This document shows positions 24,024-43,081 of a stretch of 64,000 nt of DNA, piece by piece. Below the pieces are notes generated by a model, which saw nothing but the letters and a program-made list of their open reading frames with translations, did not search any database and was not told where the DNA came from. Numbering within the stretch: position 1 is the stretch's first letter; each line of letters begins with the position of its first letter. The DNA is from a plasmid, in sequence record NZ_CP015380.1; one strand, given 5' to 3'. The position numbers and the translations under genes were made by a program.

Positions 24024-24159
24024 CCACTATTGTTAACAATTCGACTGAGAGCAATCTAGTGAAACAAAGCAGTGAGGATAACAGCATCAATATCGGCGCT
24101 AATAAGGCGGGGAAAACCGTGTCTATCGGGGTACGGAAGGTAACCGAATCTTAAGTGGC

Positions 24160-24957
24160 GTGGCCGACGGAGTAGCGGCCAATGATGCTGCCACAGTAGG
24201 ACAATTGCAGGGGGTTATGGGCAATATCAGTAGTCGAGATGATACTGGCTTGGGCGTGGCGAAAGCGACTGGTAAAAATGGATTAGCGGTCGGTGCGGGT
24301 TCGGTGGCTTCAGGCGACTTCAGTACGGCTAACGGTGCGGGCGCGCAGGCCACGGCGGCTAACAGTAGCGCTAGCGGTAGCGGTGCCAAAGCAACGACTG
24401 AGAATTCCTCTGCGTTCGGCCAGGGGGCTACAGCCTCAGGGGCGAGTGCGCTAGCGGTAGGACAGGGTAGTAGCGCCACAGGTTCACAGACTGTTGCATT
24501 AGGTACGGGTAGTCATGCTAGCGGTGCCCAGTCCGTGGCGTTGGGCAATGGTTCAGTGGCAGATAGAGACAATAGCGTTTCCGTCGGTAGTGTAGGTCAC
24601 GAACGTCAGGTAACCAATGTCGCCGCGGGTACGGCCAGAACCGATGCTGCCAACGTGGGGCAGGTCAATGACGCTTTCCAGAGTTTAGGCAAAAGCGTTA
24701 ACAAAAAGATTAATGATCTGGATGATAAGCTGACCGGCGGGATAGCCTCGGCGATGGCGATGTCGGGTATTCCTCAGGTGTATCAACCTAACTCAAGTTT
24801 GGTTGGTGCCTCGGCTTCGACGTATAACGGTCAGTCAGCTATTTCGGTCGGTGTCTCTAAAACATCTGAAGATGGAAAGTGGATTTTTAAAGTCAACGGC
24901 AGTGGTAATACCCAGAGTGACTTTGGTGCCTCAGTGGGGGTTGGGTACCAGTGGTAA
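24160..24957 (+). CDS. trimeric autotransporter adhesin, fragment 3: neck plus YadA-like C-terminal membrane anchor
   Basis: …GTEGNRILSGVADGVAANDAATVGQL… neck motif (needs one extra G at G4 24128-24131 to join fragment 2). Classic anchor ending …SAISVGVSKTSEDGKWIFKVNGSGNTQSDFGASVGVGYQW. Confidence 0.85.
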   Translation: MADGVAANDAATVGQLQGVMGNISSRDDTGLGVAKATGKNGLAVGAGSVASGDFSTANGAGAQATAANSSASGSGAKATTENSSAFGQGATASGASALAVGQGSSATGSQTVALGTGSHASGAQSVALGNGSVADRDNSVSVGSVGHERQVTNVAAGTARTDAANVGQVNDAFQSLGKSVNKKINDLDDKLTGGIASAMAMSGIPQVYQPNSSLVGASASTYNGQSAISVGVSKTSEDGKWIFKVNGSGNTQSDFGASVGVGYQW

Positions 24958-25134
24958 GACGGTTTACCCACTCGCCATGACACCTGACATATTCACTTTG
25001 GGTTAGATTAACGGGCGGCTCATAGGTCGCCCATTATCTCATTAACGCTCTACCACTCGCATTAAAGTGTCGATAAAAAGGGTGTGCAGGGCCGATCGAG
25101 AGGAGCGCTTGGTACATCAGAGGATATCCTGACC

Positions 25135-25698
25135 ATGAAGAACGTTACGATGGATAAATTAAATATCACCACGCTTGTGCCTGAGAGCAATTATGCACCT
25201 TACTTTCAAGGGGTCTCGGTCATTTCATCATGTACCTATATGTCTCAAGGTTTGGTTTATTTGTGTCAGAGCGTTAAGTGCGTCGCTCGCACTTATCTGA
25301 TTGACTTTTTTTCCGCTAACTATTTATTTAAATACGGCGCCACACTGACGAGTAAAAAGTTCTTTGCTCCCTATCATCACTATGTCGTCCACGTATCCAT
25401 GGGACAGGACACGATGTTTGCTGACTTGATGGCGCTTATTGTCATTACTAATAATCTACCGTTAACTAGCACGATTACGATATTGAGCAAGCTGCCGCCA
25501 GATTTTATTTATCACACGCTCCACCTCAATCTGCATAAGCGGGTTACCCTTACAAGATGTCGATGGATATGTGCCAAAAACCCGCCGTCGTATATCAGCG
25601 CAACGATACCCTGCCCATCTCGTCACTCTACGGCGGTTATGTTGGAAAGGGGGGAGACGGCCGAAAATAGCCGTTATATCGGGCTAACATGCTTTTAA
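25135..25698 (+). CDS. hypothetical protein (no recognisable domain)
   Basis: ORF upstream of the EAL gene. Start assigned at MKNVTMDKL…. No motif recognised, and GC is lower than the adhesin. Confidence 0.25.
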   Translation: MKNVTMDKLNITTLVPESNYAPYFQGVSVISSCTYMSQGLVYLCQSVKCVARTYLIDFFSANYLFKYGATLTSKKFFAPYHHYVVHVSMGQDTMFADLMALIVITNNLPLTSTITILSKLPPDFIYHTLHLNLHKRVTLTRCRWICAKNPPSYISATIPCPSRHSTAVMLERGETAENSRYIGLTCF

Positions 25699-25867
25699 AT
25701 CAATATGTTAATAATTTTTCGCTACCCTCATTCGGGAATAAGGAATGTGAAAATGAGAAGTAAACAATTCCACCATCATAAACTCTCTGGGCTCAGAAAA
25801 CTGTCACAACTTCCAGGCAAAGAAGGGCAAGTGTTTGCTGGATTTATTCATTCAAAAAAAAGTCTCC

Positions 25868-26605
25868 ATGCCCCCTTTAGCTAGCGAGGCGGAGGCGTTT
25901 AAGGCATTAGCGGATGGCGCTATCTTTCCATTTTATCAACCAGTCGTGAACAGAGATAAACATATCCTAGGTTATGAGTTGTTGATGCGCTGGCAAATAG
26001 GTGATGACATTCTTTCCCCGGCGGTGTTTATGGCGAACTTTCATTCTAGCCGGCTGTGGCAGCAACTCACGGAAATGATGGTGCATTCAGCGATTAATAC
26101 AATTCTCCGCTTTCGGGGTAGCACCACTTTTGCTGTCAACCTACCGGATTGCTTGCTCTACGAGGAGTGGATTGAACATATTATGAAGCAGGTACGACAT
26201 CGTTTAGTGGGTAAAGCTTCGATGTCACGCTTAGTGTTTGAAATTAGTGAACATTCCGTTCTTACCGAGCTATCCGAGGGCGGGAGGGCAATCGCCTTGC
26301 TGCGGGAGAATGGGTGCCGTGTATATTTGGATGATTGCTTTGGGGAGACAAGCGTTATTTTTCCCGTGAAAAATATTCCGCTCGACGGATTTAAGATAGA
26401 TAAAAGCATTGTCGATACTTTTCAAAACAACACGTATCATGAAAATTTGATACGGTCGTTGATTTATTTATGTTGCCTGAACCAGACAATTTGCATTGCC
26501 GAAGGAGTCGATACTCCGGATAAATTTGAGGCGCTGGCGGCGCTAGGTATCAACGCTTTTCAGGGATATCTAATAGGGAGACCGGAGGTTCTGAGTTTTG
26601 ATTAG
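25868..26605 (+). CDS. stand-alone EAL-domain protein (ELL variant, c-di-GMP phosphodiesterase-like)
   Basis: FYQPVV…GYELLMRW, FEISEHS, DDCFGETS (DDFGTG loop), KIDKSIV, IAEGVDT, QGY. Only about 245 aa, with no sensor or GGDEF domain. Confidence 0.75.
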   Translation: MPPLASEAEAFKALADGAIFPFYQPVVNRDKHILGYELLMRWQIGDDILSPAVFMANFHSSRLWQQLTEMMVHSAINTILRFRGSTTFAVNLPDCLLYEEWIEHIMKQVRHRLVGKASMSRLVFEISEHSVLTELSEGGRAIALLRENGCRVYLDDCFGETSVIFPVKNIPLDGFKIDKSIVDTFQNNTYHENLIRSLIYLCCLNQTICIAEGVDTPDKFEALAALGINAFQGYLIGRPEVLSFD

Positions 26606-27149
26606 AAGCCCTGTTATAGAGGAAAAACGGTGCTATATGGTGAGGCTAAAAGATATTCTGAGCGTGATAAAGTCCTAAACCCCCTAACCATGCTCCGGAT
26701 TTTCGCGCATATACTGTGTACCCTCTTTTTATTAAACCCCAATGGGCTGCTGAAGGCGATTTGTCTCAATGGCCCACGCCAACAAAAAATAATTAATCCG
26801 CTTTGCGATGTTTGGGAAGAGCTGCCGCGCGGACGTTTTCATATATCGATGTGTCGACGGCAATGATAAGATTTCGCGCCTGACCGTTTTATTCGATATC
26901 AGGCAGGGACAGTGACCTCTGCTTGCCCGCGCCGAAAAAACACGCACCGTTGGCGCACGGGAATGCAGCGGTGCTAACGCACCGCATATCTCCCCGTTTC
27001 GTGATGTCAGAGTAGTGTGTTGCGTTGTGTTTCCATACAGCCTATTGCCTATTGCTGTTCTTCTTCCTCTCCATCTTCTTCATCTTCTCCTGAATATACA
27101 TCTTTCTGCTGTAGTGCTTTTTCTCTTTACCTCTTAAAAATCCAAACAA

Positions 27150-27385
27150 CAGCCTATGGGGCACCGAGGGCGTGTGCTGTTCCGGCCCAAGATGACTGAC
27201 ACAACTAGTCGCGCCCTGACTGCGGGCACGCCAAGTTTTACGCAGCCACTCGACGTGTCTGCGCCCATGCGGGGTAGAGCCGCTGCTGTAAGGTCAACAG
27301 CATCGCTTGCTGTGACCTGCTGGTCACGCCGCTTTCACTGCCGGCGAGAGAATGCCGGCGCTAAGGGGCAATGCCGTTTCGCGCC
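27150..27385 (+). repeat. structured leading-region repeat, copy A (Frpo/ssi-like), upstream of ssb
   Basis: About 220 bp, near-identical to 30160-30395. Internal hairpins (GTGACCtgctgGTCAC, CAGCAtcgctTGCTG). GC-rich and non-coding. Confidence 0.45.
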
Positions 27386-27758
27386 CGCGCGTTTCGTCAT
27401 TGCGGCGGGTTTCTGCTCATCAACGCTGGCTGATTTCCCCCCTTTGAGTCCGAACGCCGGGGCTGAGATAACCACAACGCGTCTTGCTGTCCAGGGACGC
27501 AAAAGCCTTTCGCAATAAATTTATGGCGGCCATTTCGCAAGCTTCATTAGACCGCCATAAATTTCCCGCTCACCCCGGACAGCTTCACCACGCTGTGCTG
27601 ATTGACGCCCTTGCGGCGTACGGCTCTCAAACGGGTGAAGGTAACAACCAGCGGGAGTGTGCAGCAGGTCCCCGCAAAACGTCAAAACCGCGGCCCCGGC
27701 AACTCAACGGGTGATGGTTTTTAAAGGCAAAAAATCAACGAATATCAGGAGAGACACT

Positions 27759-28286
27759 ATGGCGAGCAAAGGCGTTAATAAAGTGATTTTAGTGGGACAT
27801 TTAGGCCAAGAACCCGAAGTACGCTACATGCCAAATGGGGGCGCGGTGGCTAATTTATCACTGGCCACCTCAGAAACATGGCGTGATAAGCAATCGGGCG
27901 AACAAAAAGAAAAAACCGAATGGCATCGCGTTGTGGTGTTTGGCAAGTTGGCTGAAATCGCAGGGGAATACCTGCAAAAGGGCTCACAGGTCTATATCGA
28001 GGGGGCTTTGCAAACTCGTAAGTGGACAGACACGCAAGGGAACGAGCGTTACACCACCGAAATTATCGTCAACGTGGGCGGCACTCTACAGATGCTGGGC
28101 AACCGTCTTGAAGCCAACCCAACCCCAGCACCGCAGACCAGCGGTCAGCCACAACAACAGGCAGCAACTCCCACAGCTAAAAAGGCCAGCAAAGTCAAAA
28201 AATCCAAGACCGCCGTACAGCCAGAATCTCAGCCGCAGAGCGGGGACTTCCCGCCGATGGATTTTGACGACGATATCCCATTCTAG
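27759..28286 (+). CDS. ssb: single-stranded DNA-binding protein (plasmid/leading-region type)
   Basis: [39 protein letters not shown]…, Gly/Gln-rich tail, ends DFDDDIPF. Confidence 0.9.
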
Positions 28287-28472
28287 AGTTGACTTGCCCT
28301 GCGAGAGCGGGGCTTAAACAGGAGAAATACTATGTCAGACAATATCGAGGCCAAGCCCTTAAAATCCCTGTCCGATGGCACCTTCACCCGCGAACACGCA
28401 GTAAGCAGTAAGCGAGGTGCCGGATGCTAGGACATCCGGCAGACATTAATCAACACTATCGAGGTATCAACC

Positions 28473-28772
28473 ATGTCAGAGAAGAATACTAAAGCAACCC
28501 GTAATGCGAGTAAAGCGAGCAAAAAATCTCCCCCAATGGCGCAGGCCGAAGCAGCCAACACCGCGCTGCGTGATATTCCCGTTTCTATGGTTAGCGTGAG
28601 TTCACTCGCCCATTCAACGCTGAACGTGCGCAAACAAGCCCCTGATGCTGCTAAATTGGCAGAGCTTGCCGAGAGCATTAAAGCGGTTAGCCTTTTGCAG
28701 AATCTGGTGGCGTTCGAACAGTCAGATAGCCTGTTAACGTCCATCAGTTTGCGGCAACGCAGGCCATCATAG
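28473..28772 (+). pseudogene. ParB-like nuclease-domain protein (leading-region YfjB/YdaB-like) N-terminal fragment, truncated
   Basis: …IPVSMVSVSSLAHSTLNVRK…LAELAESIKAVSLLQNLVA… resembles the ParB/Srx N-domain. It ends after 99 aa, whereas the plasmid homologues are large proteins. Confidence 0.4.
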
Positions 28773-29026
28773 ATGTCGAGCATAAGCAGCTACGCGGCAC
28801 ATAACTCGGACAACATCCTTATGCGCGGGCTTTATTCCGCCACTTACGTGGTGGCGCGATGCGCATCACCGCCAGAGATAGACGAAGAAGATATCTAATG
28901 TATTGGGGATGTCTGTGTCACCACAGGCTAACCTTCATTTCAAAATGGTGAGTGTGTTAGTAAAACTTAGCTCTTAAAATGAATACAGATGTAATACATG
29001 TGAATTATACATGTATTCATTTTCTG

Positions 29027-29320
29027 TTATAAAAGCCGCTTTTGAGCCATCTCATAGGCCTTCTCGGCTTCTCGTTTGCCGACAGCAATCACCCATATAA
29101 CTATCTCATCATCGATAACCTTGTAAATTAGACGAAAGCCTGATGCTCTTAGCTTTATTTTAAAGCAGCCAGCGAGATCTCCATGCAATCTCGCTGATTC
29201 AACGTAAGGGTTTTGCTGCAGTTTTTTTAGCTTCTTTTTGAATTGTTCGCGGACAGTTTTTTCAAGCTTATTCCATTCCTTGAAAGCCCTTTCGTCAAAT
29301 TCAATACTAAAAGTCATCAA
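29027..29320 (-). CDS. relE: RelE/ParE-family mRNA interferase toxin
   Basis: Strong similarity to E. coli RelE (…FDERAFKEWNKL…VREQFKKKL…CFKIKLRASGFRLIYKVIDDEIVIWVIAVGKRE). Confidence 0.85.
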   Translation of the reverse strand: MMTFSIEFDERAFKEWNKLEKTVREQFKKKLKKLQQNPYVESARLHGDLAGCFKIKLRASGFRLIYKVIDDEIVIWVIAVGKREAEKAYEMAQKRLL

Positions 29321-29561
29321 CGTTAACCCTGATCCGTTTGCCCGGATTTTTCATCCTTTCTCTGACGACCGCCAAGATATCAGCATCCTCATCATCTTCA
29401 CTCACCATCACTGAGACTTCAGCAAAAGGCAGTTTTTCGTTCTCTACGACATATCGCAGGAACAGACGAAGTGCATCAGAAGGAGACAGATTCAGTTTTT
29501 CAAAGGCCTGATAGGCATCTTTTTTCAGCTCGTCATCTACGCGGATTTGGATTGTGCTCAT
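29307..29561 (-). CDS. relB: RelB antitoxin
   Basis: MSTIQIRVDDELKKDAYQAFEKLNLSPSDALRLFLRYVVENEKLPF… matches RelB. Overlaps relE. Palindromic operator-like repeats lie upstream at 29600-29700. Confidence 0.85.
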   Translation of the reverse strand: MSTIQIRVDDELKKDAYQAFEKLNLSPSDALRLFLRYVVENEKLPFAEVSVMVSEDDEDADILAVVRERMKNPGKRIRVNVDDF

Positions 29562-29696
29562 TGCAAATACTCCGATAGTTCATGTCCAATTATTATACAC
29601 GCACTACATATGTAATGACAAATGTAGTGCTATATTATCTTGAATACGAATGGGGAATACCTCTTTAATGAATTACATTTGTATTACACGTGTAAT

Positions 29697-29940
29697 CTAT
29701 TTGTGTTTCAATAATTGTGCATAATCACGATGATCGAGCGAGAAGGTCACGACCAACTGTGGCGCGACATCGAGCGCAAATACCTTTAGATAAACTTCGG
29801 TGCTTTCATAACGTTCATGCCCCATATAGGTTTGAACGACCTTAGGCGGAACATGATTGAAGAACAGGTGCATCGCAAAGCTGTGCCTAAATGTTTTTGG
29901 ATTGAGTGTCTGTAAAGCAAATTGTACCCCCTCCTCGGAT
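29697..29940 (-). pseudogene. tyrosine recombinase/integrase C-terminal fragment
   Basis: Minus-strand translation …FRHSFAMHLFFNHVPPKVVQTYMGHERYESTEVYLKV…*. This carries the box II HxxR and the catalytic-Tyr region only. No N-terminal part is present. Confidence 0.6.
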
Positions 29941-30159
29941 GGATTGGATGTTGCTCAACAATAAGCTTTGCCAGGGTGTCCGGTAAACAAACAACGACAA
30001 ACGCTGCTGTGGCTTCGCCACGGCGGCGCTCTTCATTTCACATTATACGGTCTTAAATCCCTTCACCAATAGTCTTCTTAATATCTAGATTTACTCTAGT
30101 TCTCCTGCTGTTCTTACCAACTTACCTATTTCTCGCTTAGACCCAAAAACAAAGCAAAT

Positions 30160-30395
30160 GCCCTTGGGGCACCGAAGGCGTGCGCCGTTCCGACACACGA
30201 CGACTGACACAACTAGTCGCGCCTAAACAAACGGGCACGCCAAGTTTTACGCAGCCACAAAAGGTGTCTGCGCCCATGCGGGGTAGAGCCGTTGCTGGCA
30301 GGTCAACGGCATCGCTTGCTGTGACCTTAAGGTCACGCCGCTGTCACTGCCGGTGATAAAGCCACCGGCGCTAAGGACGCCACGTTTTTAACGTG
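30160..30395 (+). repeat. structured leading-region repeat, copy B (Frpo/ssi-like), upstream of the DUF932::traD ORF
   Basis: Direct repeat of 27150-27385, with the same hairpin-forming segments. Confidence 0.45.
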
Positions 30396-30703
30396 GCGAG
30401 TGTGTGCCTGCGCATTTATCGCCTGATTACCCACGCTCATGCGTTCTTTGCGGAGGGCTGGGTTTAGCACCACCCCCGTTCTAAACACAAAAGAGAATAA
30501 ATGCCGCAAGCGGCCTTTTGTGTTTAGCCCTGGTCTGTCGCAACAACGCCCATTGCCGCAAGGAACTCATCGAGAGATGGCTTAACCATCAGAGTAAGAA
30601 AAAATGCAGCTGGCACACACGAAACGTCAACACCGCCGCTGCAGAATCTATCGAAAGATAGGGAAGCCCGCTCAAGCATTTATTTAAATTTGGAGGTCAT
30701 ACC

Positions 30704-32254
30704 ATGAGACTCGCATCCCGCTTTGGCAATATTAACTCTGTACGTCGCGATCGTCCGTTAACGAATGATGAACTAGCACAATACGTCCCGAGTGTTTTTT
30801 CTGAAGAAAAACATGCGTCCCGTAGTGCGCGATATACCTATATTCCGACTATCACCCTGCTTGATAAATTGCGCGCTGAAGGATTCCAGCCGTTTTATGC
30901 CTGTCAAACCCGTGTACGCGATGAAGATAAGCGCGGTCATACCAAACATCTACTACGTTTGCGTCGTGAAGAAGGGATCGCCATTACGGGAAAGGAAGTG
31001 CCTGAAATTATTCTGCTCAATAGCCATGATGGTTCGAGCAGTTATCAAATGCTGCCGGGAATGTTCCGATTTGCATGCGCCATCCGCTACCTGCACGGCA
31101 TAGAGCGTAACGGCGAACCCTTCACCATCCGTGACTGGATGCGCGGGGTACGTGAAGATGGCAATAACGGTTGGTTGTTTATCTCATCGAATGCCGATAC
31201 TCACGCGTCCCTTAAGCCGGTGATATCGATGTGGCTGTCGTTGGCCATTCGCGGCCTATTGGCGATGGGGGAGAATCGTCAGCGCCGCGTTTGGTTTTTT
31301 GCCGATGAGATACCAACCCTGCATAAACTGCCGGATTTGGTAGAAATCGTGCCCGAGGCGCGAAAGTTCGGTGGTTGCTACGTGTTGGGCTTCCAGTCCT
31401 ACGCCCAGTTGGAAGATATCTATGGCGCCAAAGGCGCTGCCACGCTGTTCGATGTGCTTAATACCCGCGCCTTCTTCCGCTCGCCGAGTAAGCAGATTGC
31501 GGATTTTGCCGCCGGTGAAATCGGTGAAAAAGAGCAGCTCAAAGCTTCCGAGCAATATTCTTACGGTGTCGACCCTGTGCGTGATGGCACCTCGGTGGGC
31601 AAAGACATGGAGCGTGTGACGCTGGTGAGCTACAGCGACATTCAAACCCTGCCCGATTTAACCTGCTATATCACGCTGCCGGGGCCGTACCCGGCGGTGA
31701 AACTGCCGCTGAAGTACCAGACGCGTCCCAAGGTCGCACCGGAATTTATCGCCCGCACTATCGATACCGACGCCGAGACGCACCTGAGTGCCGTACTGGC
31801 CGCTCGTGAGGAAGAAGGACGTGGGATTGCCGAGCTCTTTACCCCTGATGCTGAGACAGCCGAACCCGCCTCGACGGAAAATGAGCCCGTTGCTGAGACA
31901 GCGACTCAAACTCAAACGACACCGCCTGTTACGCCTCTTCGCGAAGAGAGCGCACCGAAGCCAGCACCCAAAACGTCACCTAAGGCAGCTGCCGCATCGA
32001 CAACGGCGGCCAGCGCCACCGCAGCGGCGGTGGTTGCACCGGTCGGCGGCGTAGAGCAAGAACTCGAGGAACATGAAGAGGCGTTACCGCCGGGTATTGA
32101 TAGCCAAGGCGAACTGGTTGATCCGGATGCTTACGAGCGTTGGCAAGCTGAGCATGAGGCTAACGGCCAGCGCACGATGCAACGCCGTGAAGAGGTCAAT
32201 ATCAATCACGGTCAGTCGTCTCTCGATGACGTTGAAGTAGGAGATACATTTTGA
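30704..32254 (+). CDS. chimeric ORF: DUF932 (YfjQ-like) N-terminal 125 aa fused in frame to the C-terminal ~390 aa of an F-type TraD coupling protein
   Basis: Residues 1-125 match YfjQ/DUF932 (…RRDRPLT…[19 protein letters not shown]…[19 protein letters not shown]). The rest matches the F TraD C-terminus as I recall it (…[19 protein letters not shown]…[23 protein letters not shown]…EVNIN…GDTF). Confidence 0.75.
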
Positions 32255-32260
32255 GGGTAA

Positions 32261-32659
32261 CTAGATCCAATCTTCCAGCCGCAGACCAGAAACACGCTCA
32301 AACTCACGTGTATTGTTAGTGACAACGATAAGTCCACAACTCCGAGCATGACCAGCAATCATCAGGTCATAGGGGCCAATAGGTTTACCAAAGCGCGCTA
32401 GCTCAGCCCTAATTTGACCAGAATGTGCGGCTGCATAGCAGTCGTAATTAAGTACGGATAAACGTGCCGTAAAACCTTCAATGATGGCTAAGTTACGCTC
32501 AGGTGCGGTGCTTTTTTCCGCACCATAAATGAGCTCCATTAAAGTCACTGAACTAATACAAAGTTGATGACTGTGGCAATTGAATTTTTCGCGTACAGAC
32601 TCCGGTTTATTTTTAATGGTGAAAATACAAATGTTGGTATCAAGCATGTATTTGAGCAT
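32261..32659 (-). CDS. vapC: VapC PIN-domain toxin
   Basis: MLKYMLDTNICI… PIN acidic residues. 132 aa. Overlaps the upstream antitoxin by 1 bp. Confidence 0.85.
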   Translation of the reverse strand: MLKYMLDTNICIFTIKNKPESVREKFNCHSHQLCISSVTLMELIYGAEKSTAPERNLAIIEGFTARLSVLNYDCYAAAHSGQIRAELARFGKPIGPYDLMIAGHARSCGLIVVTNNTREFERVSGLRLEDWI

Positions 32660-32886
32660 TACAGGGCCTCACGCTCTTGCATTTCAGGTTGTTCGCGCTC
32701 AGACATAAAGTCATCTGTAACCGAATTTCCCTCAAACCAACTATCCCATGATTCTCCGGCTGGCGTAATTAAGCGAGTTCGACCTATAGCAATGATCTCT
32801 ACACGTTTGACATCTTCGGGTAGTGCCACGGCTTTGGGTAAACGAACAGCCTGACTGCGATTGCTGAGGAATACGCTAGTTTCCAT
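32659..32886 (-). CDS. vapB: VapB antitoxin (AbrB/SpoVT-type)
   Basis: 75 aa, METSVFLSNRSQAVRLPKAVALP…, immediately upstream of vapC. Confidence 0.8.
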   Translation of the reverse strand: METSVFLSNRSQAVRLPKAVALPEDVKRVEIIAIGRTRLITPAGESWDSWFEGNSVTDDFMSEREQPEMQEREAL

Positions 32887-32998
32887 GTGTGTCTCCTTTG
32901 GATATACGAGATGTATATCCAGTGTAGTTTACTTGTTGGATATGTCAATGGGATATCCCTCTTCTATTTAAGATACAACAAACAAAAGGTTATCTGCG

Positions 32999-35588
32999 AT
33001 GATGAGTTTTAGCCAGGTGAAGTCGGCAGGCGGAGCAGCAGGCTACTACACCGACAAAGACAATTATTACGTCTTGGGCAGTATGGATGACCGTTGGCAT
33101 GGCGAGGGCGCCAAGCTGTTGGGTTTAGAGGGCTGCATCGATAAAGACACCTTCACCCGTGCGCTTAAGGGATTACTGCCTGACGGTTCCGATTTGTCCC
33201 GTCTGCAGGGTGGCAGTAATAAGCACCGTCTGGGCTATGACCTGACTTTCTCTGCACCCAAGAGTGTTTCGGTGATGGCGATGCTGGGCGGTGATAAACG
33301 CCTGATTGAAGCCCATAACGTTGCGTAATGAGGCAGGGGAAAGCCAACAGATAAAACTGTCGGCGTTAAATAGCCAGTGGTCGTTGTATCGCTCAGAGCA
33401 GCTGCCGGTTGCCGTGGGGGAAAAACTGAACGTGCTGGGGAAAATGCCAGAGCACAAACTGCGCGCCGGTGATGATCTCAACGTGGTCAGTCATGCCGAG
33501 GGCAAGATAGCCGTGGTACGTAATGGGAAAGGAGTCGCTCAGCCGCTACCCGTGGGCAATTCACCGTTCTCTGCGATAAAGGTGGGGCATGCGTGGGTGG
33601 AGGGATTAGGGCGCTCGGTCAGTGATGACGCTACGGTCTTTGTGGCCGCAAGCAACCGCGACCTCGACAAGATGACCTTGAACCAACTGTCGCGCAGCGG
33701 CGCACAGATACAGATGTATTCGGCGCAAAGCCCCGAAAAAACGGCTGAAAAACTCACACGTCATCCGGCGTTTAAGGTTGTGACGCAGCAGATAAAAGCC
33801 GTGGCGGGCGAGTCGGTTCTCGATGAGGCGCTACAGCACCAGAAAACAGCGCTCAATACGCCGGTACAGCAGGCGATGCATTTGGCTATCCCCACGCTTG
33901 AAAACCAAAAACTGGCGTTTTCGCACGTCTCTCTTCTGGCGGCGGCGCAGGAGTTCGGTAACGGTAAGCTCTCGCTGCCGGCGATTGAGCAAGAGGTTCA
34001 GCAGCAGGTCAAAGAGGGGGCATTAATCGCGGTCGATGTCGCTCAAGGGCACGGCAATGATTTGCTGGTCTCTCGGGTGTCCTTTGAGGCAGAAAAAAGC
34101 ATTATTCGCCATATCGCCAAGGGGAAAGAGGCGGTCGCACCTCTGATGAATGACGTCCCCGAGAGCCTCTTAGCAGGGTTGACGACGGGTCAACAGGCGG
34201 CGACGCGCATGATACTCGAAACGCCCGACCGTTTTGTGACGGTACAAGGTTATGCCGGCGTGGGCAAAACTACCCAGTTCCGTGCGGTGATGCAGGCCAT
34301 TAATACCTTGCCTGAAGAATATCGTCCTCGCGTCATCGGGCTAGGTCCTACTCATCGCGCGGTGGGAGAGATGCGTGGTGCGGGGCTTGATGCCCAAACG
34401 CTGGCCTCTTTTCTCTATGACACCGCACAGCAGCAGCGGCAGGGGGAAACACCGGATTATCGTAATACGGTTTTTGTGGTGGATGAAAGCTCGATGCTGG
34501 GCAATACCGACATGGCCAAAACTTATGCGCTGATTGCGGCAGGCGGTGGACGGGCGGTCTTTAGCGGAGACAGTGACCAGCTGCAGCCGATTGCACCGGG
34601 CCAACCGTTTAAGCTGCAGCAAAGGCGCAGTGCTGCCGATGTGGCCATTATGCAGGAAATCGTGCGCCAGACCCCCGCGCTCCGGCCTGCGGTGTATCGC
34701 ATGATTGAGCGTGATATCAGCGGCGCGTTGGCCACGGTGGAGAGTGTCGCACCGGTACAGGTGCCGCGCCAACCCGGCGCGTGGGTCCCTGACAGTTCGG
34801 TAATGGAGTTTACCCGCGAGCAAGAAAATGCGATACGAGAAGCCATCCAAGAAGCGGGTAAAGGTGTGAATATTGATGAGAGTAAGCCTACGACTCTTTA
34901 CGAGAGCATCGTCGCAGATTATATGGGGCGCACGCCTGACGCCCGCGCGCAAACGCTGATTGTGACGCACTTGAACGACGACCGTCGCGTAGTGAATGCG
35001 ATGATACATAACGCCCGTGAGAATGCCGGCGAACTTGGCGGTAAGACCTCTATTCCGATTTTAGTCACGGCGAACGTACGCGACGGTGAACTCAGGCGAC
35101 TGAGTACGTGGGAAGAACACCGTTGTGACCGCGTGCTCATGGACAATATCTACCATCAGATAGCCGATATTGATAAGCAGGCTGAGCTAATCACGCTGCG
35201 CGATAACGCCGGCAATACGCGGCTACTCTCCCCCCGCGAAGCCGCCAGTGAAGGGGTAACGCTGTATAAGCAAGACGTGATAACGGTCGGTGTGGGCGAC
35301 AAAATGCGCTTTTCAAAAAGTGACAATGAGCGGGGCTATATTGCCAACAGCGTGTGGACGGTCTCGGATATAGCGGGTGACAGTGTCACGCTAACAGACG
35401 GTCAACAGCAGCGCACGGTGAAACCCTATCGTGATGAAGCGCAGAGCCATATTGATTTAGCCTATGCGGTCACCGCACACGGTGCGCAGGGGGCCAGTGA
35501 GTCCTTTGCCATTGCACTCGAAGGGACCGACGGTGGCCGCAAGCAGATGGTGAGTTTTGAGTCAGTGTACGTTGACGGAGACAACTAA
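32999..35588 (+). pseudogene. traI: F-type TraI relaxase/helicase remnant: N-terminal 109 aa joined out of frame to the central helicase region, with the C-terminal ~270 aa absent
   Basis: N-terminal part matches F TraI residues 1-109 (MMSFSQVKSAGGAAGYYTDKDNYYVLGSM…). The second ORF aligns with F TraI from …TLRDAQGE…SSWSLF… through …HIDLAYAITAHGAQGASE…. The relaxase catalytic region is deleted. Confidence 0.85.
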
Positions 35589-36257
35589 AGACCAATAATG
35601 CCTTCGCTTACAACGGACAAGCCGTGCCGCTCAGAAGTTTAAGTTCCTCCCATCGCTATGCGACGGGCCCCATACAAATCACTTTAGTTACAACACTCTC
35701 AACATCCACACAGCAATCCGTGCACATCGGCAGCCACAGAGCGAAACCTATCCCACTGCAAAGCGGCTCGCCACCGGCCCAAAGGGCCGGAAATGAGTCG
35801 CTTTATAAGTGGATGTTGTAACTAGAGAATTTGTGTTGCTGTAAGTCATGTGGCGGATTGTTTCAGGTACATGCTCGTAAGCGGCTCTACGACCCGCTAA
35901 CGCGGAGATACACCCCAACTGCGGCAAAGCCTTGTAGTGGTCACTCCGACCGCATAATGGAACTTCTACGCCGCTTTTAGTGGGTTTAACTTTGCAGCTA
36001 TCGTGTTCTGTCAAAAAAAGTCGCTTCTAATTTAGACATACAGCCCCCTAAGCGCTGCCAGCAAGCTGCCAGCACTAAGTCCCCGATACATCGCGGCTAC
36101 GCCGCGCTAACGGGGTTAAAAGGACTTAAATCAGCATTTTTATCGCTGTAAGTCTGCATGGCTCTTCAGGGCGGGAGGGGTATAAGGATCTTTTATGATC
36201 CTACTCCGGCTTACGCCGGGCTTCGGCGGTTTGACTACAGATTCATATAAAACAACA

Positions 36258-37268
36258 TCATGCCGCCTTACATGCGCTACGCGCATCTAAAGACAGATAT
36301 TCAGCATCAAACGGCTTCTGTGTTTTCAAGACCCCATAGCACCAGTGAACAAGCTTGCGCATCAGTGCACCAATAGCACACATTTTGACCTTGCCACGCT
36401 GGCATAAACGCTTATACATCGCCTTCATCATTGGGTTAAATCTCAGACCGCACAACGATGCTAGATACAGTTTTGCCCTGACTTTCGGTGGCCCAATTTT
36501 TGACAATCTCGGTTTCCCTCTGACCGATGTGCCGGAGTTTTTTTCGACAGGAACGACGCCCAGAAAGGCAGCTACCTGCTCTGCTGTGTCGAAATGATGA
36601 CTCCGCAGGATAACCAGCATATTCAGTCCTAACTGAAAACCCACGGATTTTATCGATGTCAGCAGGTCAAAATCCTTCTTTAATTCAGGATGCTGGTCGA
36701 AATGGGTCAGGATAAGAGCGTCCAGATGCTCCAGCTCTGCACTCAGATTACGAAGCACATTTTCGATCGATTCAGCAACAATAGGAGGGATGTCCGTTGC
36801 CCTGCATTTTTCCAGTCTGTTTTTTGCGCGGGTACAGTCTGTGACGAATGCATCGCGGCAACGCAGAAGTGCGTTGAGATAGCGGACATTTTCCGGTTGG
36901 TGGTTCCCATGGCTCCGGCTCCTTAAGTGCCCCATAACAGGCCAGCATATAAGCGTCCACTTTGTCATTTTTTGTCAGAATATCCATGCCGCGGGCAAAT
37001 TCTCTGCTGCGGTGTGAGTTGCAAGCGATACCTTTGCTCCGGCATTGTGCAGACCGTAAGCCAGCGATTCGTGATAAACCCCGGTGGCTTCCATGATGAT
37101 ATGAACATCTTCTGGGATGCTGTGCTGCTTATGGAGCCAGTTGATTACAACACTGGCCGCATTGAAATCATTTTTAAGCTTGCGGGATTTTACCTTGCCT
37201 TTAACGCCTTCACGCAGCAGGCACAAATCCAAAGTTTTCTTACTGACATCAATACCTAACTGAAACAT
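36258..37268 (-). mobile_element. IS110-family transposase gene, split by two frameshifts into three ORF pieces
   Basis: N-terminal DEDD domain (MFQLGIDVSKKTLDLCLL…), middle piece …KNDKVDAYMLACYGAL…, C-terminal Transposase_20-like region (…LTSIKSVGFQLGLNMLVI…SKIGPPKVRAKLYLAS…). Confidence 0.8.
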
Positions 37269-37659
37269 AGGTGTATTCTCCTCACTGAACCATCACGCCT
37301 ATTATCCTTGTACATGCAGAGTCATCGCTCTTGGCAACAGTTCAATGTTAATGCTGGCGTGAAAGGTGAAGCGGAGGGCTTTTACTGCAAATCAAGGTTC
37401 GTGCCATTTAGGGGGGGACAAGCTCACTCTGCCTCATATGATGGTAGCTAACCACCATATGTTTATTACATACAAGGGGTGGGAAGGGGATTGAGGATAC
37501 CTATCAACGCAGGGCGGCTACGCCGCGTTTCCGGCGCCATTTAACGTCCAACAACGTCTGGCGCCTCCATGCCGCAAAGCGGCATCAGTCAGATGGAATA
37601 TTCCACCGAATGTGCTACTATCCGTGTAAGTTACACATCTTATCTGGAGTATTTCTATC

Positions 37660-37893
37660 ATGAGCATTAAACGTAATAAACAGAGTGTCACCGTGACTCT
37701 GGAACGTAGCCTGCTGTCACGGGCTCGTGAAGCCGGCGTTAATATGAGCGCTACGTTAGCTGCTGCACTTGATACAGAACTAAAAAAAAATGCAGCGATG
37801 CGCTGGCTCGAAGATAACGCAGAATCTGTTGCTGTACTAAATCGTATTGGGGAAGAAACGGGATGTTTTTCTGACGAGTACCGGAGTTTTTAA
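37660..37893 (+). CDS. ccdA: CcdA antitoxin
   Basis: 77 aa. C-terminal …RWLEDNAESVAVLNRIGEETGCFSDEYRSF parallels F CcdA …RWKAENQEGMAEVARFIEMNGSFADENRDW. Confidence 0.75.
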   Translation: MSIKRNKQSVTVTLERSLLSRAREAGVNMSATLAAALDTELKKNAAMRWLEDNAESVAVLNRIGEETGCFSDEYRSF

Positions 37894-37895
37894 CA

Positions 37896-38210
37896 ATGCA
37901 ATTTACTGTATACCGAGGTATCGGTAAAAACGCGGCTTTCCCATTGTTAATCGATATTACCAGTGACATCATTGGTGATATTAATCGCCGTCTGGTTATT
38001 CCTTTAATGCCTGTGGAACGTTTTGGGCATCATCGGCCACCGGAAAGACTTAACCCAGTACTGGATATGACTGACGGTAAAAAATACGTATTGATGACTC
38101 ATGAAGCCGCGACTATTCCGGTAAAAGCGCTTGGTGTAAAATTTTGTGATGCAACAGCATATAGGGTAGTCATCAAAGGTGCTGTTGACTTCATGTTGGA
38201 TGGAATCTGA
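37896..38210 (+). CDS. ccdB: CcdB gyrase-poison toxin
   Basis: MQFTVYRG…LLIDITSDIIGDINRRLVIPLMP…, 104 aa, ends …MLDGI (F CcdB ends …MFWGI). Confidence 0.85.
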   Translation: MQFTVYRGIGKNAAFPLLIDITSDIIGDINRRLVIPLMPVERFGHHRPPERLNPVLDMTDGKKYVLMTHEAATIPVKALGVKFCDATAYRVVIKGAVDFMLDGI

Positions 38211-38415
38211 AGCTCTGCCGTCAAACGATATGCGTTCGCTTGATGGTTAGGAAATTGGATCCGTTTTTTCCTTTAGATCAGAGGTAAAAGAAGGTGATAG
38301 GGCCATGAGTTTCATCCGCTCAGGTAGAACCTCCCTAAGCTGCTAATAACCATCGCTTCTTTTCTAGCTGCTGATGGCGTTCGGCCAGCAAGGGGGCCAT
38401 TTGGAAAACGGAGCC

Positions 38416-38453
38416 CATTACTAGGGGACTGAAGCCCAACCGTACGAAAACGT
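38416..38453 (+). repeat. Tn3-family 38-bp terminal inverted repeat (left end, reading inward)
   Basis: GGGGACTGAAGCCCAACCGTACGAAAACGTACGCTAAG. Compare the Tn3 repeat GGGGTCTGACGCTCAGTGGAACGAAAACTCACGTTAAG. A minus-strand ORF fragment ends with its TAA stop just inside this repeat, as tnpA does in Tn3-family elements. Confidence 0.7.
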
Positions 38454-38734
38454 ACGCTAAGTACGTTTATTGAGCTAAAACTATCGAGATCCTGTAGCCC
38501 CATTTTTTCGCTTTTACTACTGCCGGTTCTGCTTTTCCGGCCTGCAATACCACCAGTTGTTCGTTATGCGCTTTCAACGCCATTAATTCACCAGTCATCG
38601 TCGCTTTAGATTCCCTTGCCTCAACAGCCTCTTTCAAGGCTTTATCCAGTGCTGTTTTCCTGGCCTTTGCGGGTGGACTTAACCTGAAAAAAGTCGTTAA
38701 AAATAGTTACCCTTCATTCTTTGATAAAATCTCA

Positions 38735-39529
38735 ATGCTGTCTCTGTATTTGCTTCTGGTGTTTATGGGGGCCACGGTTGGTGGGATCCCTGATATTAAG
38801 GGGCAACTCTCCGTCGCGGGCTTTAATGATCTGATCATTGCGTCAGATACATCGGTGATAACCTTTATTACCCTGGTCGCTGTAGGCAAGCTGAGTGGAG
38901 AAAAACGGCCTCCCCGTAATGCTTCACACCTGCAGAACAGTCTTTCAAATCTGCTGTCAATTTTTCTTCCCACGCTCTCTCAGTTCATCACGGTGGCGGC
39001 CGGCTTTATACTGGGGTTAAAAGGGTTAATGCCCGACCTGTACGCAGACCACATTATCTCTTTGCTTCTGTATCTGTTGATATTTTCCGTCGCGGTAAAA
39101 TTATCGTATTCGAATATTAGTATAAAACGCGTGCTGTTAAATAAAACCAACCTGTGGCTAACGTTGGTCACGATATTGTCATCATTTATGGGAGCCGCGC
39201 TGGCATCATTGTTTATCAACGTACCGCTCCATGAAGTTCTGGCGATCGGATCCGGTTTTGTATGGTATACCCTTTCTGGAACGCTGTTCACAAAAATGGG
39301 CAATCCTCTGTTAGGAACCGTGGCTTTCTTAAGCGAACTGTTTCGCGGGATATCTGCGCTGATGCTCATTCCGCTGATTTCGCGGTTCGGTTACAGCACC
39401 GCTACCATCGCTATATCCGGTTCAACGGCTCTTGATGTGACGCTGCCGGTTGCGCGACTTATATCCCTTTCTTCTATTACCTTTAAAGAGGCCTTTTGGC
39501 AGCGGAGAAAGGACAGTAGAAAAACTTAA
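38735..39529 (+). CDS. polytopic membrane protein (possibly DUF340/LysO-like exporter)
   Basis: 264 aa, about 8 predicted transmembrane helices in two repeated halves. Family assignment is tentative. Confidence 0.4.
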   Translation: MLSLYLLLVFMGATVGGIPDIKGQLSVAGFNDLIIASDTSVITFITLVAVGKLSGEKRPPRNASHLQNSLSNLLSIFLPTLSQFITVAAGFILGLKGLMPDLYADHIISLLLYLLIFSVAVKLSYSNISIKRVLLNKTNLWLTLVTILSSFMGAALASLFINVPLHEVLAIGSGFVWYTLSGTLFTKMGNPLLGTVAFLSELFRGISALMLIPLISRFGYSTATIAISGSTALDVTLPVARLISLSSITFKEAFWQRRKDSRKT

Positions 39530-39686
39530 CCACGGCGATTGACCTGATTTCATCGACTAATGACCTGTGAGCATGTCACGGCCCATCCCTTCCTCCTCTT
39601 ATAGTAAAGCTACTCGCAGCCACCCAGCCTGATTATGCTAAACGCAGTAGCTGGGCTTCAAATCTAATGAATCACTGGAGCAAATA

Positions 39687-40466
39687 ATGAAATTAACGCA
39701 AATCCGCAATGCCACTCTCTTGCTGCAATATGCCGGTAAAAAATTCCTTATCGACCCAATGCTCGCAGAAAAGGAAGCCTGGGATGGTTTTGCCGGAAGT
39801 GCCCGCCCGCACCTGCGTAATCCCATGGTTGCCTTGCCTGTGCCTGTAGAAGATTTACTGGCTGTTGATGCCGTTATCCTGACCCACACTCATACCGATC
39901 ATTGGGACGAAGCAGCACAGCAGTCTGTTCCTAAAGACATGCTTATTTATACGCAGGATGAAAAAGATGCGGCGCTGATCCGTTCTCAGGGCTTTCTTAA
40001 CGTCCGCGTTCTGAAAGATGAAAATCATTTTGTTGACGGACTGACGATTTATAAAACTGACGGCCAGCACGGCAGTAACGAACTATACGCCGATACCCAA
40101 TTGGGTGATTTACTGGGTGACGCATGCGGTCTGGTCTTCACGCATCATGATGAAAAAACGCTTTATATCGCCGGTGATACCGTCTGGGTCAAGCCTTATA
40201 TAAAAAGCCTTCAGCGCTTCAAGCCGGAGATTGTGGTACTCAATACCGGCTATGCGGTCAACGACCTGTACGGTCCGATCATCATGGGAAAAGAAGATAC
40301 CTTACGCACACTTAAGATGTTGCCGACTGCGACCATCGTGGCGTCTCACATGGAATCAATCAATCATTGCCTCCTTACCCGCGCAGAATTACGCGAGTTC
40401 TCACTTGAACATGGCATTGAAGATAAAGTCCTTATTCCTGCAGACGGTGAAACAATGTCTTTCTGA
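39687..40466 (+). CDS. MBL-fold metallo-hydrolase
   Basis: THTHTDHWD (HxHxDH) motif with downstream His and Asp ligands. 259 aa. Confidence 0.8.
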   Translation: MKLTQIRNATLLLQYAGKKFLIDPMLAEKEAWDGFAGSARPHLRNPMVALPVPVEDLLAVDAVILTHTHTDHWDEAAQQSVPKDMLIYTQDEKDAALIRSQGFLNVRVLKDENHFVDGLTIYKTDGQHGSNELYADTQLGDLLGDACGLVFTHHDEKTLYIAGDTVWVKPYIKSLQRFKPEIVVLNTGYAVNDLYGPIIMGKEDTLRTLKMLPTATIVASHMESINHCLLTRAELREFSLEHGIEDKVLIPADGETMSF

Positions 40467-40594
40467 TAAGCCAATAAGATTTATTTGGGCGAAAAATGTA
40501 TTCCGACAGGTCACCTGTTATCCTCTGGTCAATCGGAATCAGCAATACTGCCGCCGGTGATCTGGTGGCTCTCCTTTACGGCAAGGTTAACGTT

Positions 40595-41569
40595 ATGTCT
40601 GTATTGACGGTCGCCGTGATTGCCACGGCCGGATTCAGCCCTTTTCACTTTTCAGTCCCCTGTATTATTTTCGGACAGTCTATGCCGCAGTCGGATTTAT
40701 TCCGCGTGGAAATTTGTGCTGAAAAACCGGGCGTCGTCCTGTCAGATATTGGCCTGTCAATCAATGTGAAACATGGCCTCGAGCTACTTGACGTCGCAGA
40801 CATTGTTATCGTGCCCTACTGGAATCATCCGGAAGAGCGACCTTCTCAGGCGCTACTTGACAAGCTGATAAGCGCATGGCAGCGCGGCGCAGAAGTGGTT
40901 GGGCTTTGTCTCGGTGCATACGTGCTGGCCTATTCTGGGTTACTGGATCAGCGCCGGGCGGTAACACACTGGGAGTTCGAACAGGACTTCGTTGAACGAT
41001 TTCCAGCCGTTTGTCTGGACAGCAACTCGCTGTATACCAGCGATGAACGCCTTATTACCTCTGCCGGCACCGCCGCCGGTATTGACTGCTGTCTTAATAT
41101 TATCCGGGATCATTACGGTTCAGCGGTTGCTAACCGTGTAGCAAGAAGAATGGTGGTTCCTCCTTATCGGGAAGGCGGCCAGGCACAGTTTATTGAACGC
41201 CCGGTCCCTGTATCTACGCGGGACGGAAAAATGAACGAGCTGATGGACTACCTGCGTCGCAATCTGGACAAGCCGCACGACCTCGACTCGCTGGCGGGAT
41301 TTGCCAGCATGAGCAGGCGGACACTTACCCGTCATTTTTTTAAGGCAACCGGGACAACGCTGGGTGGCTGGCTAAACGCTGAGCGTCTTCAGAGAAGCCA
41401 GGAGCTGCTGGAAACTACGGACAGCAGTATTGAAAACGTGTCTGATATTGCCGGGTTTCAGTCGCCAATCTCTTTCCGCCAGAGTTTTAAGGCGAAATTC
41501 AGCGTCAGCCCAAGCGAATGGCGCCGGGCATTTCGCGGTCCTGTACCAGTTGATCACGGAAAGGCCTGA
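40595..41569 (+). CDS. AraC-family transcriptional regulator with N-terminal DJ-1/PfpI (GlxA-type) domain
   Basis: Probable start MSVLTVAVIATAGFSPFHFSVP…. C-terminal AraC helix-turn-helix (…RRTLTRHFFKATGTTLGGWLNAERLQRSQELL…). Confidence 0.8.
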   Translation: MSVLTVAVIATAGFSPFHFSVPCIIFGQSMPQSDLFRVEICAEKPGVVLSDIGLSINVKHGLELLDVADIVIVPYWNHPEERPSQALLDKLISAWQRGAEVVGLCLGAYVLAYSGLLDQRRAVTHWEFEQDFVERFPAVCLDSNSLYTSDERLITSAGTAAGIDCCLNIIRDHYGSAVANRVARRMVVPPYREGGQAQFIERPVPVSTRDGKMNELMDYLRRNLDKPHDLDSLAGFASMSRRTLTRHFFKATGTTLGGWLNAERLQRSQELLETTDSSIENVSDIAGFQSPISFRQSFKAKFSVSPSEWRRAFRGPVPVDHGKA

Positions 41570-41899
41570 GCGGAAGCTAAGAAATCATAATAATTTTAGA
41601 AAACTGGCAGCCTGATACCGGAATAAAAATTTGTTCCTGAAATGAGTGAACTGGCTCATTCTTTAAGGGGGCCGCTTGGAAAACGAATCTATGGCCACTC
41701 CCGTTTTTGCAACACCGATTTTGACAATAAGTTGGCTTGCTTGAATCTATCCGGCGTCTGAATGGGATTTTATTTCCGCGCCTGATGAACCTCAGAAAAT
41801 ATACGGCTTCAATGAGCCTTTCCGTTTTACAGCTTCCTCAACAGGCCGATAGGCCGTTAGTATCATCAATATTAGTATTCGCAAAACCAGATCAGTGAT

Positions 41900-42860: not shown

Positions 42861-43043
42861 CTGTCCTCAGCACAGTAGCGGGAAGGAGGGAGTGGCCATC
42901 TCATTAAATATCCTACTCTAAGGCGATTTCTTAAGCAGACATGACAGGCAGCTCTGAGCGAGGAGCGGACGCTGCCCGACAGACCTGATGTGCAACTGAG
43001 CCGGTTAGAAAGCACCAGTTTGGTTAAAACACATACTTAGCGT

Positions 43044-43081
43044 ACGTTTCCGTACGGTTGGGCTTCAGACCCCTACTAGCG
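43044..43081 (-). repeat. Tn3-family 38-bp terminal inverted repeat (right end)
   Basis: The reverse complement reads GGGGTCTGAAGCCCAACCGTACGGAAACGTACGCTAAG. It matches 38416-38453 at 36 of 38 positions, in inverted orientation. Confidence 0.7.

Follow-up and report, generated by a model that had tools for sequence, protein, structure and literature searches.

Three deletions, a DUF932::TraD chimera and a recurrent traD breakpoint in an F-like plasmid of Hafnia alvei

The window analysed here is a 64,000-nucleotide (nt) stretch of sequence record NZ_CP015380.1 and makes visible 64 of the 87.6 kb of a Hafnia alvei plasmid (87,576 bp in full). Between positions 26907 and 38210, it carries the remains of an F-like conjugation region, in which the start of a DUF932 gene is fused to the end of traD, the relaxase gene traI is present as two pieces that are out of frame with each other, and three toxin–antitoxin gene pairs are retained; the exact proteins are recorded as ANC42856–ANC42866. 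Genes were called from a listing of open reading frames (ORFs) and from Pfam/NCBIfam profile searches, and comparisons were made by blastn and BLASTP. The resulting gene list confirms that the region is decayed F-like conjugation DNA, as a first-pass annotation made from the sequence alone had proposed, and comprises the following features.

26907–27750, plus strand: non-coding block upstream of ssb with Frpo-like copy A (core 27137–27366)
27759–28286, plus strand: ssb, intact, 175 amino acids (aa) (PF00436, E = 2e-40; NF006533, 272.6 bits, cutoff 260)
28414–28880, plus strand: truncated ParB-like gene joined to an internal psiA fragment (blastn against H. alvei plasmid pA23BA)
29027–29561, minus strand: relE/relB pair (TIGR02385 RelE_StbE, 36.9 bits, cutoff 27.9; NF008412 RelB/DinJ, 116.2 bits, cutoff 96)
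29697–29873, minus strand: C-terminal fragment of a tyrosine recombinase, 58 aa (weak PF00589 match, E = 8e-4)
29937–30033, plus strand: 3' end of psiA and the sequence just downstream (95% identical to pA23BA, L002 11692–11596)
30040–30703, plus strand: non-coding block upstream of DUF932 with Frpo-like copy B (core 30145–30376)
30704–32254, plus strand: chimeric ORF, 516 aa, DUF932 residues 1–126 in frame with TraD residues 351–740 (junction 31082/31083)
32261–32886, minus strand: vapC/vapB pair (NF010285, 243.7 bits, cutoff 143; NF040493, 116.3 bits, cutoff 60)
32999–33328, plus strand: traI 5' remnant, TraI residues 1–107 plus two junction-derived codons
33318–35574 (ORF 33306–35588), plus strand: traI middle remnant, F TraI residues 681–1434, out of frame with the 5' remnant
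35575–37585, no strand assigned: remnant of the region downstream of IncFII repA, split by IS110 into 35575–35997 and 37477–37585 (in relatives, at least 282 nt past the repA stop)
35998–37476, minus strand: broken IS110-family element, DEDD and Transposase_20 domains split over ORFs of 97 and 236 aa
37660–38210, plus strand: ccdA/ccdB pair (PF07362, E = 1e-23; PF01845, E = 8e-29)

The DNA junction of the chimeric ORF reads GCATGCGCCA|TCCGCTACC, the bar marking the break here and below. PF06067 matches residues 36–126, covering profile positions 1–90 of 227 (the intact gene of close relatives specifies 275 aa), and TrwB_AAD_bind matches residues 122–336. The TraD part, residues 350–717 in F numbering, spans positions 347–735 of the 735 positions of the F-type TraD profile (NF010254/TIGR02759), scoring 639.7 bits against a cutoff of 1221. 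In BLASTP searches, the two parts aligned with residues 1–124 of the F DUF932 protein at 71% identity and with residues 350–717 of F TraD at 68%. These matches establish that the fusion is in frame and marks a deletion junction, as had been supposed, and that the N-terminal part is DUF932 and not a bona fide TraD variant. In F TraD, the Walker A motif (GTVGAGKS) lies near residue 195, ahead of the junction at residue 350; because this motif and the N-terminal membrane anchor are gone, the TraD part is predicted to be unable to act as a coupling ATPase. The product is annotated in GenBank as hypothetical protein ANC42860.1 (A6V27_20775), and users of the annotation should be warned that this entry is a deletion chimera.

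The traI 5' remnant, annotated as 'nicking and unwinding protein' (ANC42863.1), matches positions 1–109 of the PRK13709 profile and only positions 1–108 of 286 of the TrwC domain, and the middle remnant is 62% identical to F TraI in BLASTP. TraI residues 108–680 and 1435–1756 are absent, and the two pieces score 200.4 and 1126.1 bits against NF010263/PRK13709, for which the cutoff is 2212. If the positions of the N-terminal tyrosines and HUH histidines are taken to be those established for F TraI, the remnant keeps the tyrosines and lacks the histidines. Alignment with F TraI shows that the gene is not collinear and that the deletion is real. The first-pass annotation had described the loss of the relaxase core and the out-of-frame jump correctly, but the second piece starts at residue 681 rather than approximately 840, the last 322 rather than approximately 270 of the 1756 residues are gone, and the retained stub, described as residues 1–109, consists of 107 TraI residues and two junction-derived ones. 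In a 127-aa protein from a Logan contig (P0187), TraI residue ~105 is joined to the PLD-like gene that lies downstream of traX; the left break of this variant is 0–2 nt from the traI break of the window (33316–33319, CCCATA|AC), a breakpoint shared with another partner.

Close relatives, found by look-ups of the window's own SSB, VapC, and CcdB, are 110–132-kb H. alvei F-like plasmids, namely OZ061321.1 (110,159 bp), LAZG01000002.1, and a number of metagenome and Logan contigs. They are 99.5–100% identical to the window from approximately 17382 to 48220, and the only interruptions of this identity are three junctions. Positions 20851–31082 are 99.6% identical to OZ061321.1 (L014) and 23745–31082 are 99.9% identical to L016, 31082–35574 are 99.96–100% identical to L012 and L013, and 35575–48209 are 99.9% identical to L005. 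The tra regions of the relatives, including traI, are intact wherever they were fetched: an intact DUF932 gene (275 aa), an SLT gene, the origin of transfer (oriT), traM, traJ, traY, traA, traL, traE, traK, and traB, then traN, traF, traH, traG, traS, traD (740 aa), vapBC, and traI (1756 aa), followed by traX, a PLD-like gene, finO, repA2, IncFII repA, IS110 in some members, ccdAB, and LysO-MBL-AraC-FUSC. The truncated ParB gene, the parB-psiB-psiA deletion, relBE, and the integrase fragment are common to every relative fetched there, and some relatives also carry the IS110 copy. On this comparison, most of the decay listed above is common to relatives with intact fetched tra regions, and only the three deletions are particular to the window. 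Two earlier interpretations are not borne out: the block as a whole does not represent the decay of this particular plasmid, since the leading-region decay occurs in tra-intact relatives too, nor is it a remnant lodged in other DNA, since 17382–48220 is collinear with intact-tra H. alvei plasmids. Because sopA/sopB-type partition genes (271–2500, at the window start) and adhesin genes lie in the window, it is plasmid backbone throughout and not a chromosome with an inserted remnant. In a collection of one-genome-per-species contigs, the junction 24-mer and the traD flank gave no exact match, and the plasmid itself is absent from that collection and from PLSDB.

The first deletion joins DUF932 nt 379 to traD nt ~1051 at 31082 and removed approximately 23.5 kb (arithmetic from OZ061321.1 locus coordinates, which assumes a complete circular record), including the SLT gene, oriT, traM, traJ, traY, and all mating-pair genes. 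The native sequences are GCATGCGCCA|ACGG and AAAGCTA|TCCGC, leaving a microhomology of 1 nt, or of 4 nt if the parental traD carried a GCC allele. The second deletion removed 1,721 nt inside traI at 33318/33319, with a 2-nt microhomology (AC), taking away the HUH portion of the relaxase together with most of the vestigial helicase and shifting the frame. The third, 5,674 nt in comparison with L005, extends from traI codon 1432 to 282 nt past the repA stop without microhomology and removed the 3' end of traI, traX, the PLD-like gene, finO, repA2, and repA. All three deletions and their junctions are absent from the close relatives. A metagenome contig from the Joint Genome Institute (JGI), L019, has both the chimera and the traI deletion and differs from the window by 3 mismatches in 4,462 nt; an additional duplication of DUF932 in the left part of this contig was rejected as a scaffold join with 10 N. 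Three illegitimate-recombination deletions with 0–2 nt of microhomology (up to 4 nt with the GCC allele) would explain all window-specific features.

None of traA, L, E, K, B, V, C, W, U, N, F, H, and G was found among the ORFs of the window, which contains no oriT, mating-pair gene, or other relaxase. The oriT region of the relatives (L014 14536–14970, with the nic-like sequence GTGTGT|GGTC) lies inside the 23.5-kb deletion and has no match in the window, and the mating-pair genes fetched in relatives all lie inside the same deletion. The earlier claim that the block cannot transfer itself holds, with oriT, mating-pair genes, and the relaxase catalytic domain all missing from the window, and because there is no oriT the plasmid is presumably neither self-transferred nor mobilised. 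A further consequence had been overlooked: IncFII repA2 and repA, which in relatives lie between finO and IS110/ccdAB, fall inside the 5,674-nt deletion. Because IncFII repA is deleted, the plasmid would have to replicate from another replicon, located outside the window, and it may persist through that replicon, the sopAB-type partition genes, and the three toxin–antitoxin pairs. The plasmid is thus very probably a recent, non-transmissible derivative, produced by three deletions, of the 110–132-kb H. alvei F-like family (MOBF/MPF_F, IncFII plus a second replicon).

The first-pass annotation had further proposed that one deletion removed everything from the leading region through oriT and the type IV secretion system into traD. 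The loss of this segment is confirmed, but a single event is not established, since a two-step route is equally compatible with the data. In such a route, an ancestor resembling Logan contig L003 would have lost traE to traD, and a second deletion would then have run from DUF932 to the same traD site. This contig is 100%, 99.9%, and 100% identical to the three window segments that it covers and keeps an intact DUF932 gene, SLT gene, traM, traJ, traA, traL, and traI, while its traE nt 207 is joined to traD at the very nucleotide used in the window (GATGCATCATAT|CCGC, microhomology TAT, 4976–4990). The traD site survives each event and could act again, and a third variant in Logan contig L018, from a lineage 93% identical, joins traG nt 39 to traD (GAGTGGCTA|TCCGC, microhomology GCTA, 71–90) and makes a nested series. 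Against this, the final junction would be identical by either route, with 1 nt of microhomology with either parent, and because the L018 lineage is only 93% identical, at least two of the events must be independent in any case. We regard the two-step route as quite possible, at somewhat below an even chance.

Another alternative is that the chimera is a selected, functional protein: a soluble C-terminal TraD fragment that retains Walker B as well as the C-terminal tail and, once expressed from the start of DUF932, would act as a decoy that disturbs incoming or co-resident F-like plasmids. The C-terminal tail of F TraD binds TraM. The fusion is in frame and its 516 codons are uninterrupted, its junction is seen in both an isolate and a metagenome, and TraD residues 351–740 are preceded by a start codon in the sibling variants (ATG in L003, GTG in L018). 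Yet neither the L003 nor the L018 junction is in frame with its upstream gene, Walker A and half of the RecA-like core are missing from the fragment, the DUF932 part amounts to 90 of 227 profile positions, and comparable fusions are frequent as by-products elsewhere; moreover, the sequences are so nearly identical that selection cannot be measured. Nor was a sigma-70 consensus promoter in duplex form found upstream of the chimera (29900–30760). Expression from the Frpo-like element, which the first-pass annotation had considered, is unlikely to matter, because Frpo promoters form only on incoming single-stranded DNA, the plasmid lacks oriT, and no sigma-70 consensus was found in that stretch. 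A selected function is therefore improbable, and the DUF932::TraD ORF and the two traI ORFs are better seen as probable by-products (pseudogenes) than as evolved genes. It is extremely improbable that the junctions are assembly or scaffolding artefacts: L019 does include a false duplication of part of DUF932 at a scaffold join of 10 N, but the three junctions of the window are continuous and free of N, lie in a finished 87.6-kb plasmid record, and share no k-mers long enough to mislead an assembler, and the chimera and traI deletion recur in the right-hand part of L019, an independent JGI assembly.

Some points weigh against the derivation of the plasmid by three simple decay deletions. The recurrence of the traD breakpoint implies that the largest deletion does not lie at a random position. 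The chimeric ORF is intact and in frame in two datasets, which makes a function conceivable, and divergence is too small to test for purifying selection. Finally, with only 64 of 87.6 kb visible, the surviving replicon and the absence of a second oriT have to be inferred.

Three apparently independent Hafnia deletions, with left ends in DUF932, traE, and traG, share the traD nucleotide at GCTA|TCCGC (window 31079–31083); once microhomology is taken into account, a single break position, GCT|A or GCTA|T, would fit each of the three junctions. Among 12 sequences containing this stretch of traD, 8 are intact and 4 are deleted, the partners being DUF932 (window and L019), traE (L003), and traG (L018). 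The 90%-identity protein cluster of the chimera contains two other truncated TraD proteins, both with the same start. Similar breaks occur in E. coli: a traB::traD join (L020) and two different traG::traD joins (L021 and L032) end at GTTA|TCCGTCG (nt 603/604), a traG::traD and a traD::traX join (L023 and L033) break at ATTA|TCCGGG (nt 538), and a further traG::traD join (L034) breaks at GATA|TCCGGA (nt 513/514), giving six events in all at TA|TCCG sites of E. coli F-type traD. A Klebsiella-type traC::traD join reads GTC|ATCCGCC. F traD has five TATCCG sites and Hafnia traD has two. Three of the E. coli cases (L020, L021, and L023) were picked after the Ile-Arg start had been noticed and are therefore biased, whereas L032, L033, and L034 were drawn at even spacing, without selection, in two samples of truncated records. 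In these unselected samples, 3 of 10 traD endpoints fell at TATCCG sites, against approximately 1.6% expected per endpoint by our own estimate, and none of nine sampled traI endpoints lay at such a boundary. Similar-looking traI breaks are the L034 deletion (GCCA|TCCGTCC) and the left end of the traI deletion in the window (CATA|ACCGCG). When the motif was widened to any TCCG/CGGA boundary, the counts remained 3 of 10 for traD and 0 of 9 for traI against 12% by chance, and the wider motif was rejected; among the sampled endpoints, only the traD TATCCG sites stand out.

A nicking enzyme or an abortive recombinase may act at such traD sites. A pseudo-nic site for TraI was rejected, as nic on the transferred strand (GTGTGT|GGTC) and the traD site (GCGGAT|AGCT) are dissimilar and the strand geometry does not fit. 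A hairpin was rejected as well, the 8-bp inverted repeat at the site in the window's lineage not being conserved in the L018/pA23BA lineage. No insertion sequence (IS) element was found at the junctions of the window, L003, L018, L020–L023, or L032–L034, all of which are direct joins. A candidate would be a shufflon-type tyrosine recombinase acting on pseudo-sfx right arms. The sfx site of the Rci shufflon consists of a 7-bp spacer (GTGCCAA) and a 12-bp right arm, TCCGGTAC(G/C)TGG (PMC4176322). The Hafnia traD site, AAAGCTA|TCCGCTACCTGC, agrees with the sfx right arm at 10 of 12 positions (TCCGCTACCTGC in Hafnia, TCCGGTACCTGG in sfx; PMC4176322), with the break at the boundary of spacer and arm. 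Against this candidate, the spacer agrees at 2 of 7 positions, the match of the E. coli traD sites is poorer (5–7 of 9 sfx consensus positions), and no Rci-like gene was found on pA23BA. One E. coli assembly with a traG::traD(603) deletion, DJH_183sputum, contains only a chromosome, a 4.4-kb plasmid, and an F-like plasmid; it includes no IncI plasmid and gives no support for co-residence of Rci. That the traD junction marks a sequence-specific DNA break and not a random accident is a tentative proposal, which we consider rather doubtful. If it were true, hot spots would in part drive the loss of conjugation in F-like plasmids and make it predictable, and the conjugative to non-conjugative transition, a major route by which virulence and resistance plasmids evolve, would have a mechanistic component.

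TraD fusions in the databases have TraB, TraC, TraG, TraH, or a leading-region methylase as the N-terminal partner, and TraD::TraX and TraD::TraI fusions also occur; these proteins belong to plasmids of E. coli, Salmonella, and Klebsiella. Complete E. coli records with a traD match number 3,298, of which approximately 210 (~6%) have no full-length match. Because the same chimera is present in a metagenome and similar TraD fusions are common in databases, the finding is, apart from the recurrent traD breakpoint, ordinary plasmid decay in the form of a tra-deleted F-like plasmid, and that breakpoint is the only feature deserving follow-up. The case nevertheless illustrates how the conjugative F-like plasmid of a food and gut bacterium can become non-transmissible, addiction-stabilised, and adhesin-carrying. 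Among E. coli Logan/NCBI contigs, L021 (4018–4802) has a TraG::TraD fusion as well as a TraI stub of 204 aa that is joined to traX, multiple tra deletions that closely resemble the pattern in the window.

In the leading region, the copy A block (26907–27750) shares 87% identity with the sequence preceding ssb in pA23BA and has weak homology to the corresponding region of F; copies A and B are 83% identical to each other over 232 nt. When folded as single-stranded DNA of the minus (transferred) strand and compared with shuffled controls, copy A gave z = −2.4 and copy B z = −3.7. Neither copy showed a single long hairpin or demonstrable promoter hexamers, Rfam has no family for Frpo, and a gathering-threshold search of 26000–39000 gave no match; the label Frpo-like is a plausible one, in keeping with where both copies lie in the leading region and with their repeat structure. 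The ssb product is an exact match to H. alvei ANC42856.1. Positions 28414–28739 match the 5' end of a 2,088-nt ParB-N gene of pA23BA and 28736–28880 match its psiA (both by blastn), and the segment is the product of a deletion that removed the 3' end of parB, psiB, and the 5' end of psiA. The ParB fragment forms a 99-aa ORF (28473–28772), with a weak ParB_N match in relatives, and the same ORF is present in the tra-intact relatives L014–L017. A DUF905 gene lies between ssb and the ParB fragment in L015 and L017 and is gone, through a small deletion of approximately 160 nt, from the window (28393–28402), OZ061321.1, and L016. The middle of psiA is replaced by relBE, which all relatives fetched there have at this position, and by the integrase fragment, the C-terminal fifth of a plasmid tyrosine recombinase that is common to the relatives and is 48% identical to residues 202–257 of the 260-aa site-specific integrase of pA23BA (E = 6e-16). 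The leading-region features first listed (Frpo-like repeats, ssb, ParB fragment, relBE, and integrase fragment) are all present, with two psiA fragments to be added.

The three addiction modules reported earlier are indeed kept: relBE, vapBC, and ccdAB are intact, each consisting of adjacent antitoxin and toxin genes above their family cutoffs (CcdA, 83.7 bits, cutoff 22.4; CcdB, 100.2 bits, cutoff 28.6; exact proteins ANC42865.1 and ANC42866.1), with toxin activity being predicted from these matches. The vapBC pair, previously bracketed as an inserted element, also lies between traD and traI in the Hafnia relatives, in F, and in F-like plasmids of E. coli; because F and the E. coli plasmids share this position, it is native and not an insertion. 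The IS110 element occupies the same site in L005 and L007 and is absent from OZ061321.1, and an intact 336-aa form of its transposase occurs in the same protein cluster. In OZ061321.1, the ori-proximal sequence adjoining the IS110 site is only 90.6% identical, and in relatives L004 and L009 the IS110 copy is itself interrupted by an IS91-family element (Y2 transposase).

Elsewhere, the window contains fimbrial, YadA, and invasin-type adhesin genes. A YadA-type trimeric autotransporter adhesin (19117–24957), with a highly repetitive stalk, 62–65% GC, and strong AT skew, is split into three ORFs (286, 1368, and 265 aa). Because it is a single 1815-aa gene in OZ061321.1 and much shorter versions occur in other relatives, its repeat number varies and the gene is probably broken in the window. 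Adjoining ccdAB, LysO, MBL-fold, and GlxA/AraC genes (38735–41569) form a block approximately 94% identical to one found in thousands of Enterobacterales plasmids from Klebsiella, Escherichia, Enterobacter, Pantoea, Pectobacterium, and Providencia, and this block is a cargo module that travels widely. At the right end of the window, low-GC (~33%) DNA contains a gene for a sigma factor of the sigma-70 family and a truncated cyclopropane-fatty-acid-synthase-like ORF (61770–62615 and 63051–63653), unusual cargo for an F-like plasmid.

Among known systems, other tra-deleted F-like plasmids, such as the pO157 type, which keeps only traI from nt 3881, have likewise lost transfer genes by internal deletion, and other TraD deletion fusions resemble the window in having in-frame chimeras and relaxase fragments beside maintenance modules. 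The window differs from those fusions in that the partner, DUF932, comes from the leading region, so that the deletion removes oriT too, and in that traD is broken at codon 351, compared with codons ~171–202 in the E. coli cases checked. The close H. alvei relatives have the same backbone order, with the YadA adhesin, an EAL gene, Frpo, ssb, the ParB fragment, relBE, the integrase fragment, Frpo, and DUF932 on the left and traD, vapBC, traI, ccdAB, LysO, MBL, AraC, and FUSC on the right; unlike the window, they (including L010, L012, and L015–L017) have the full DUF932 gene, oriT, and tra genes in every stretch fetched. The best PLSDB relative, pA23BA (NZ_CP050151.1, 85 kb, IncFII/MOBF/MPF_F, conjugative), is 87–94% identical; unlike in the window, its parB-like gene, psiB, and psiA are all complete and no vapBC separates traD from traI. 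The F plasmid (NC_002483.1), which is complete and conjugative, differs in having only 62–71% protein identity to the window and shares the layout of the Hafnia family, both in the leading region (ssb, DUF905, parB-like gene, psiB, DUF932, SLT gene, oriT, and traM) and further on (traD, vapCB, traI, and traX). The nic region is also conserved between the two, reading TTTGCGTGGTGTGT|GGTC in the Hafnia family and GTGGGGTGT|GGTGC in F.

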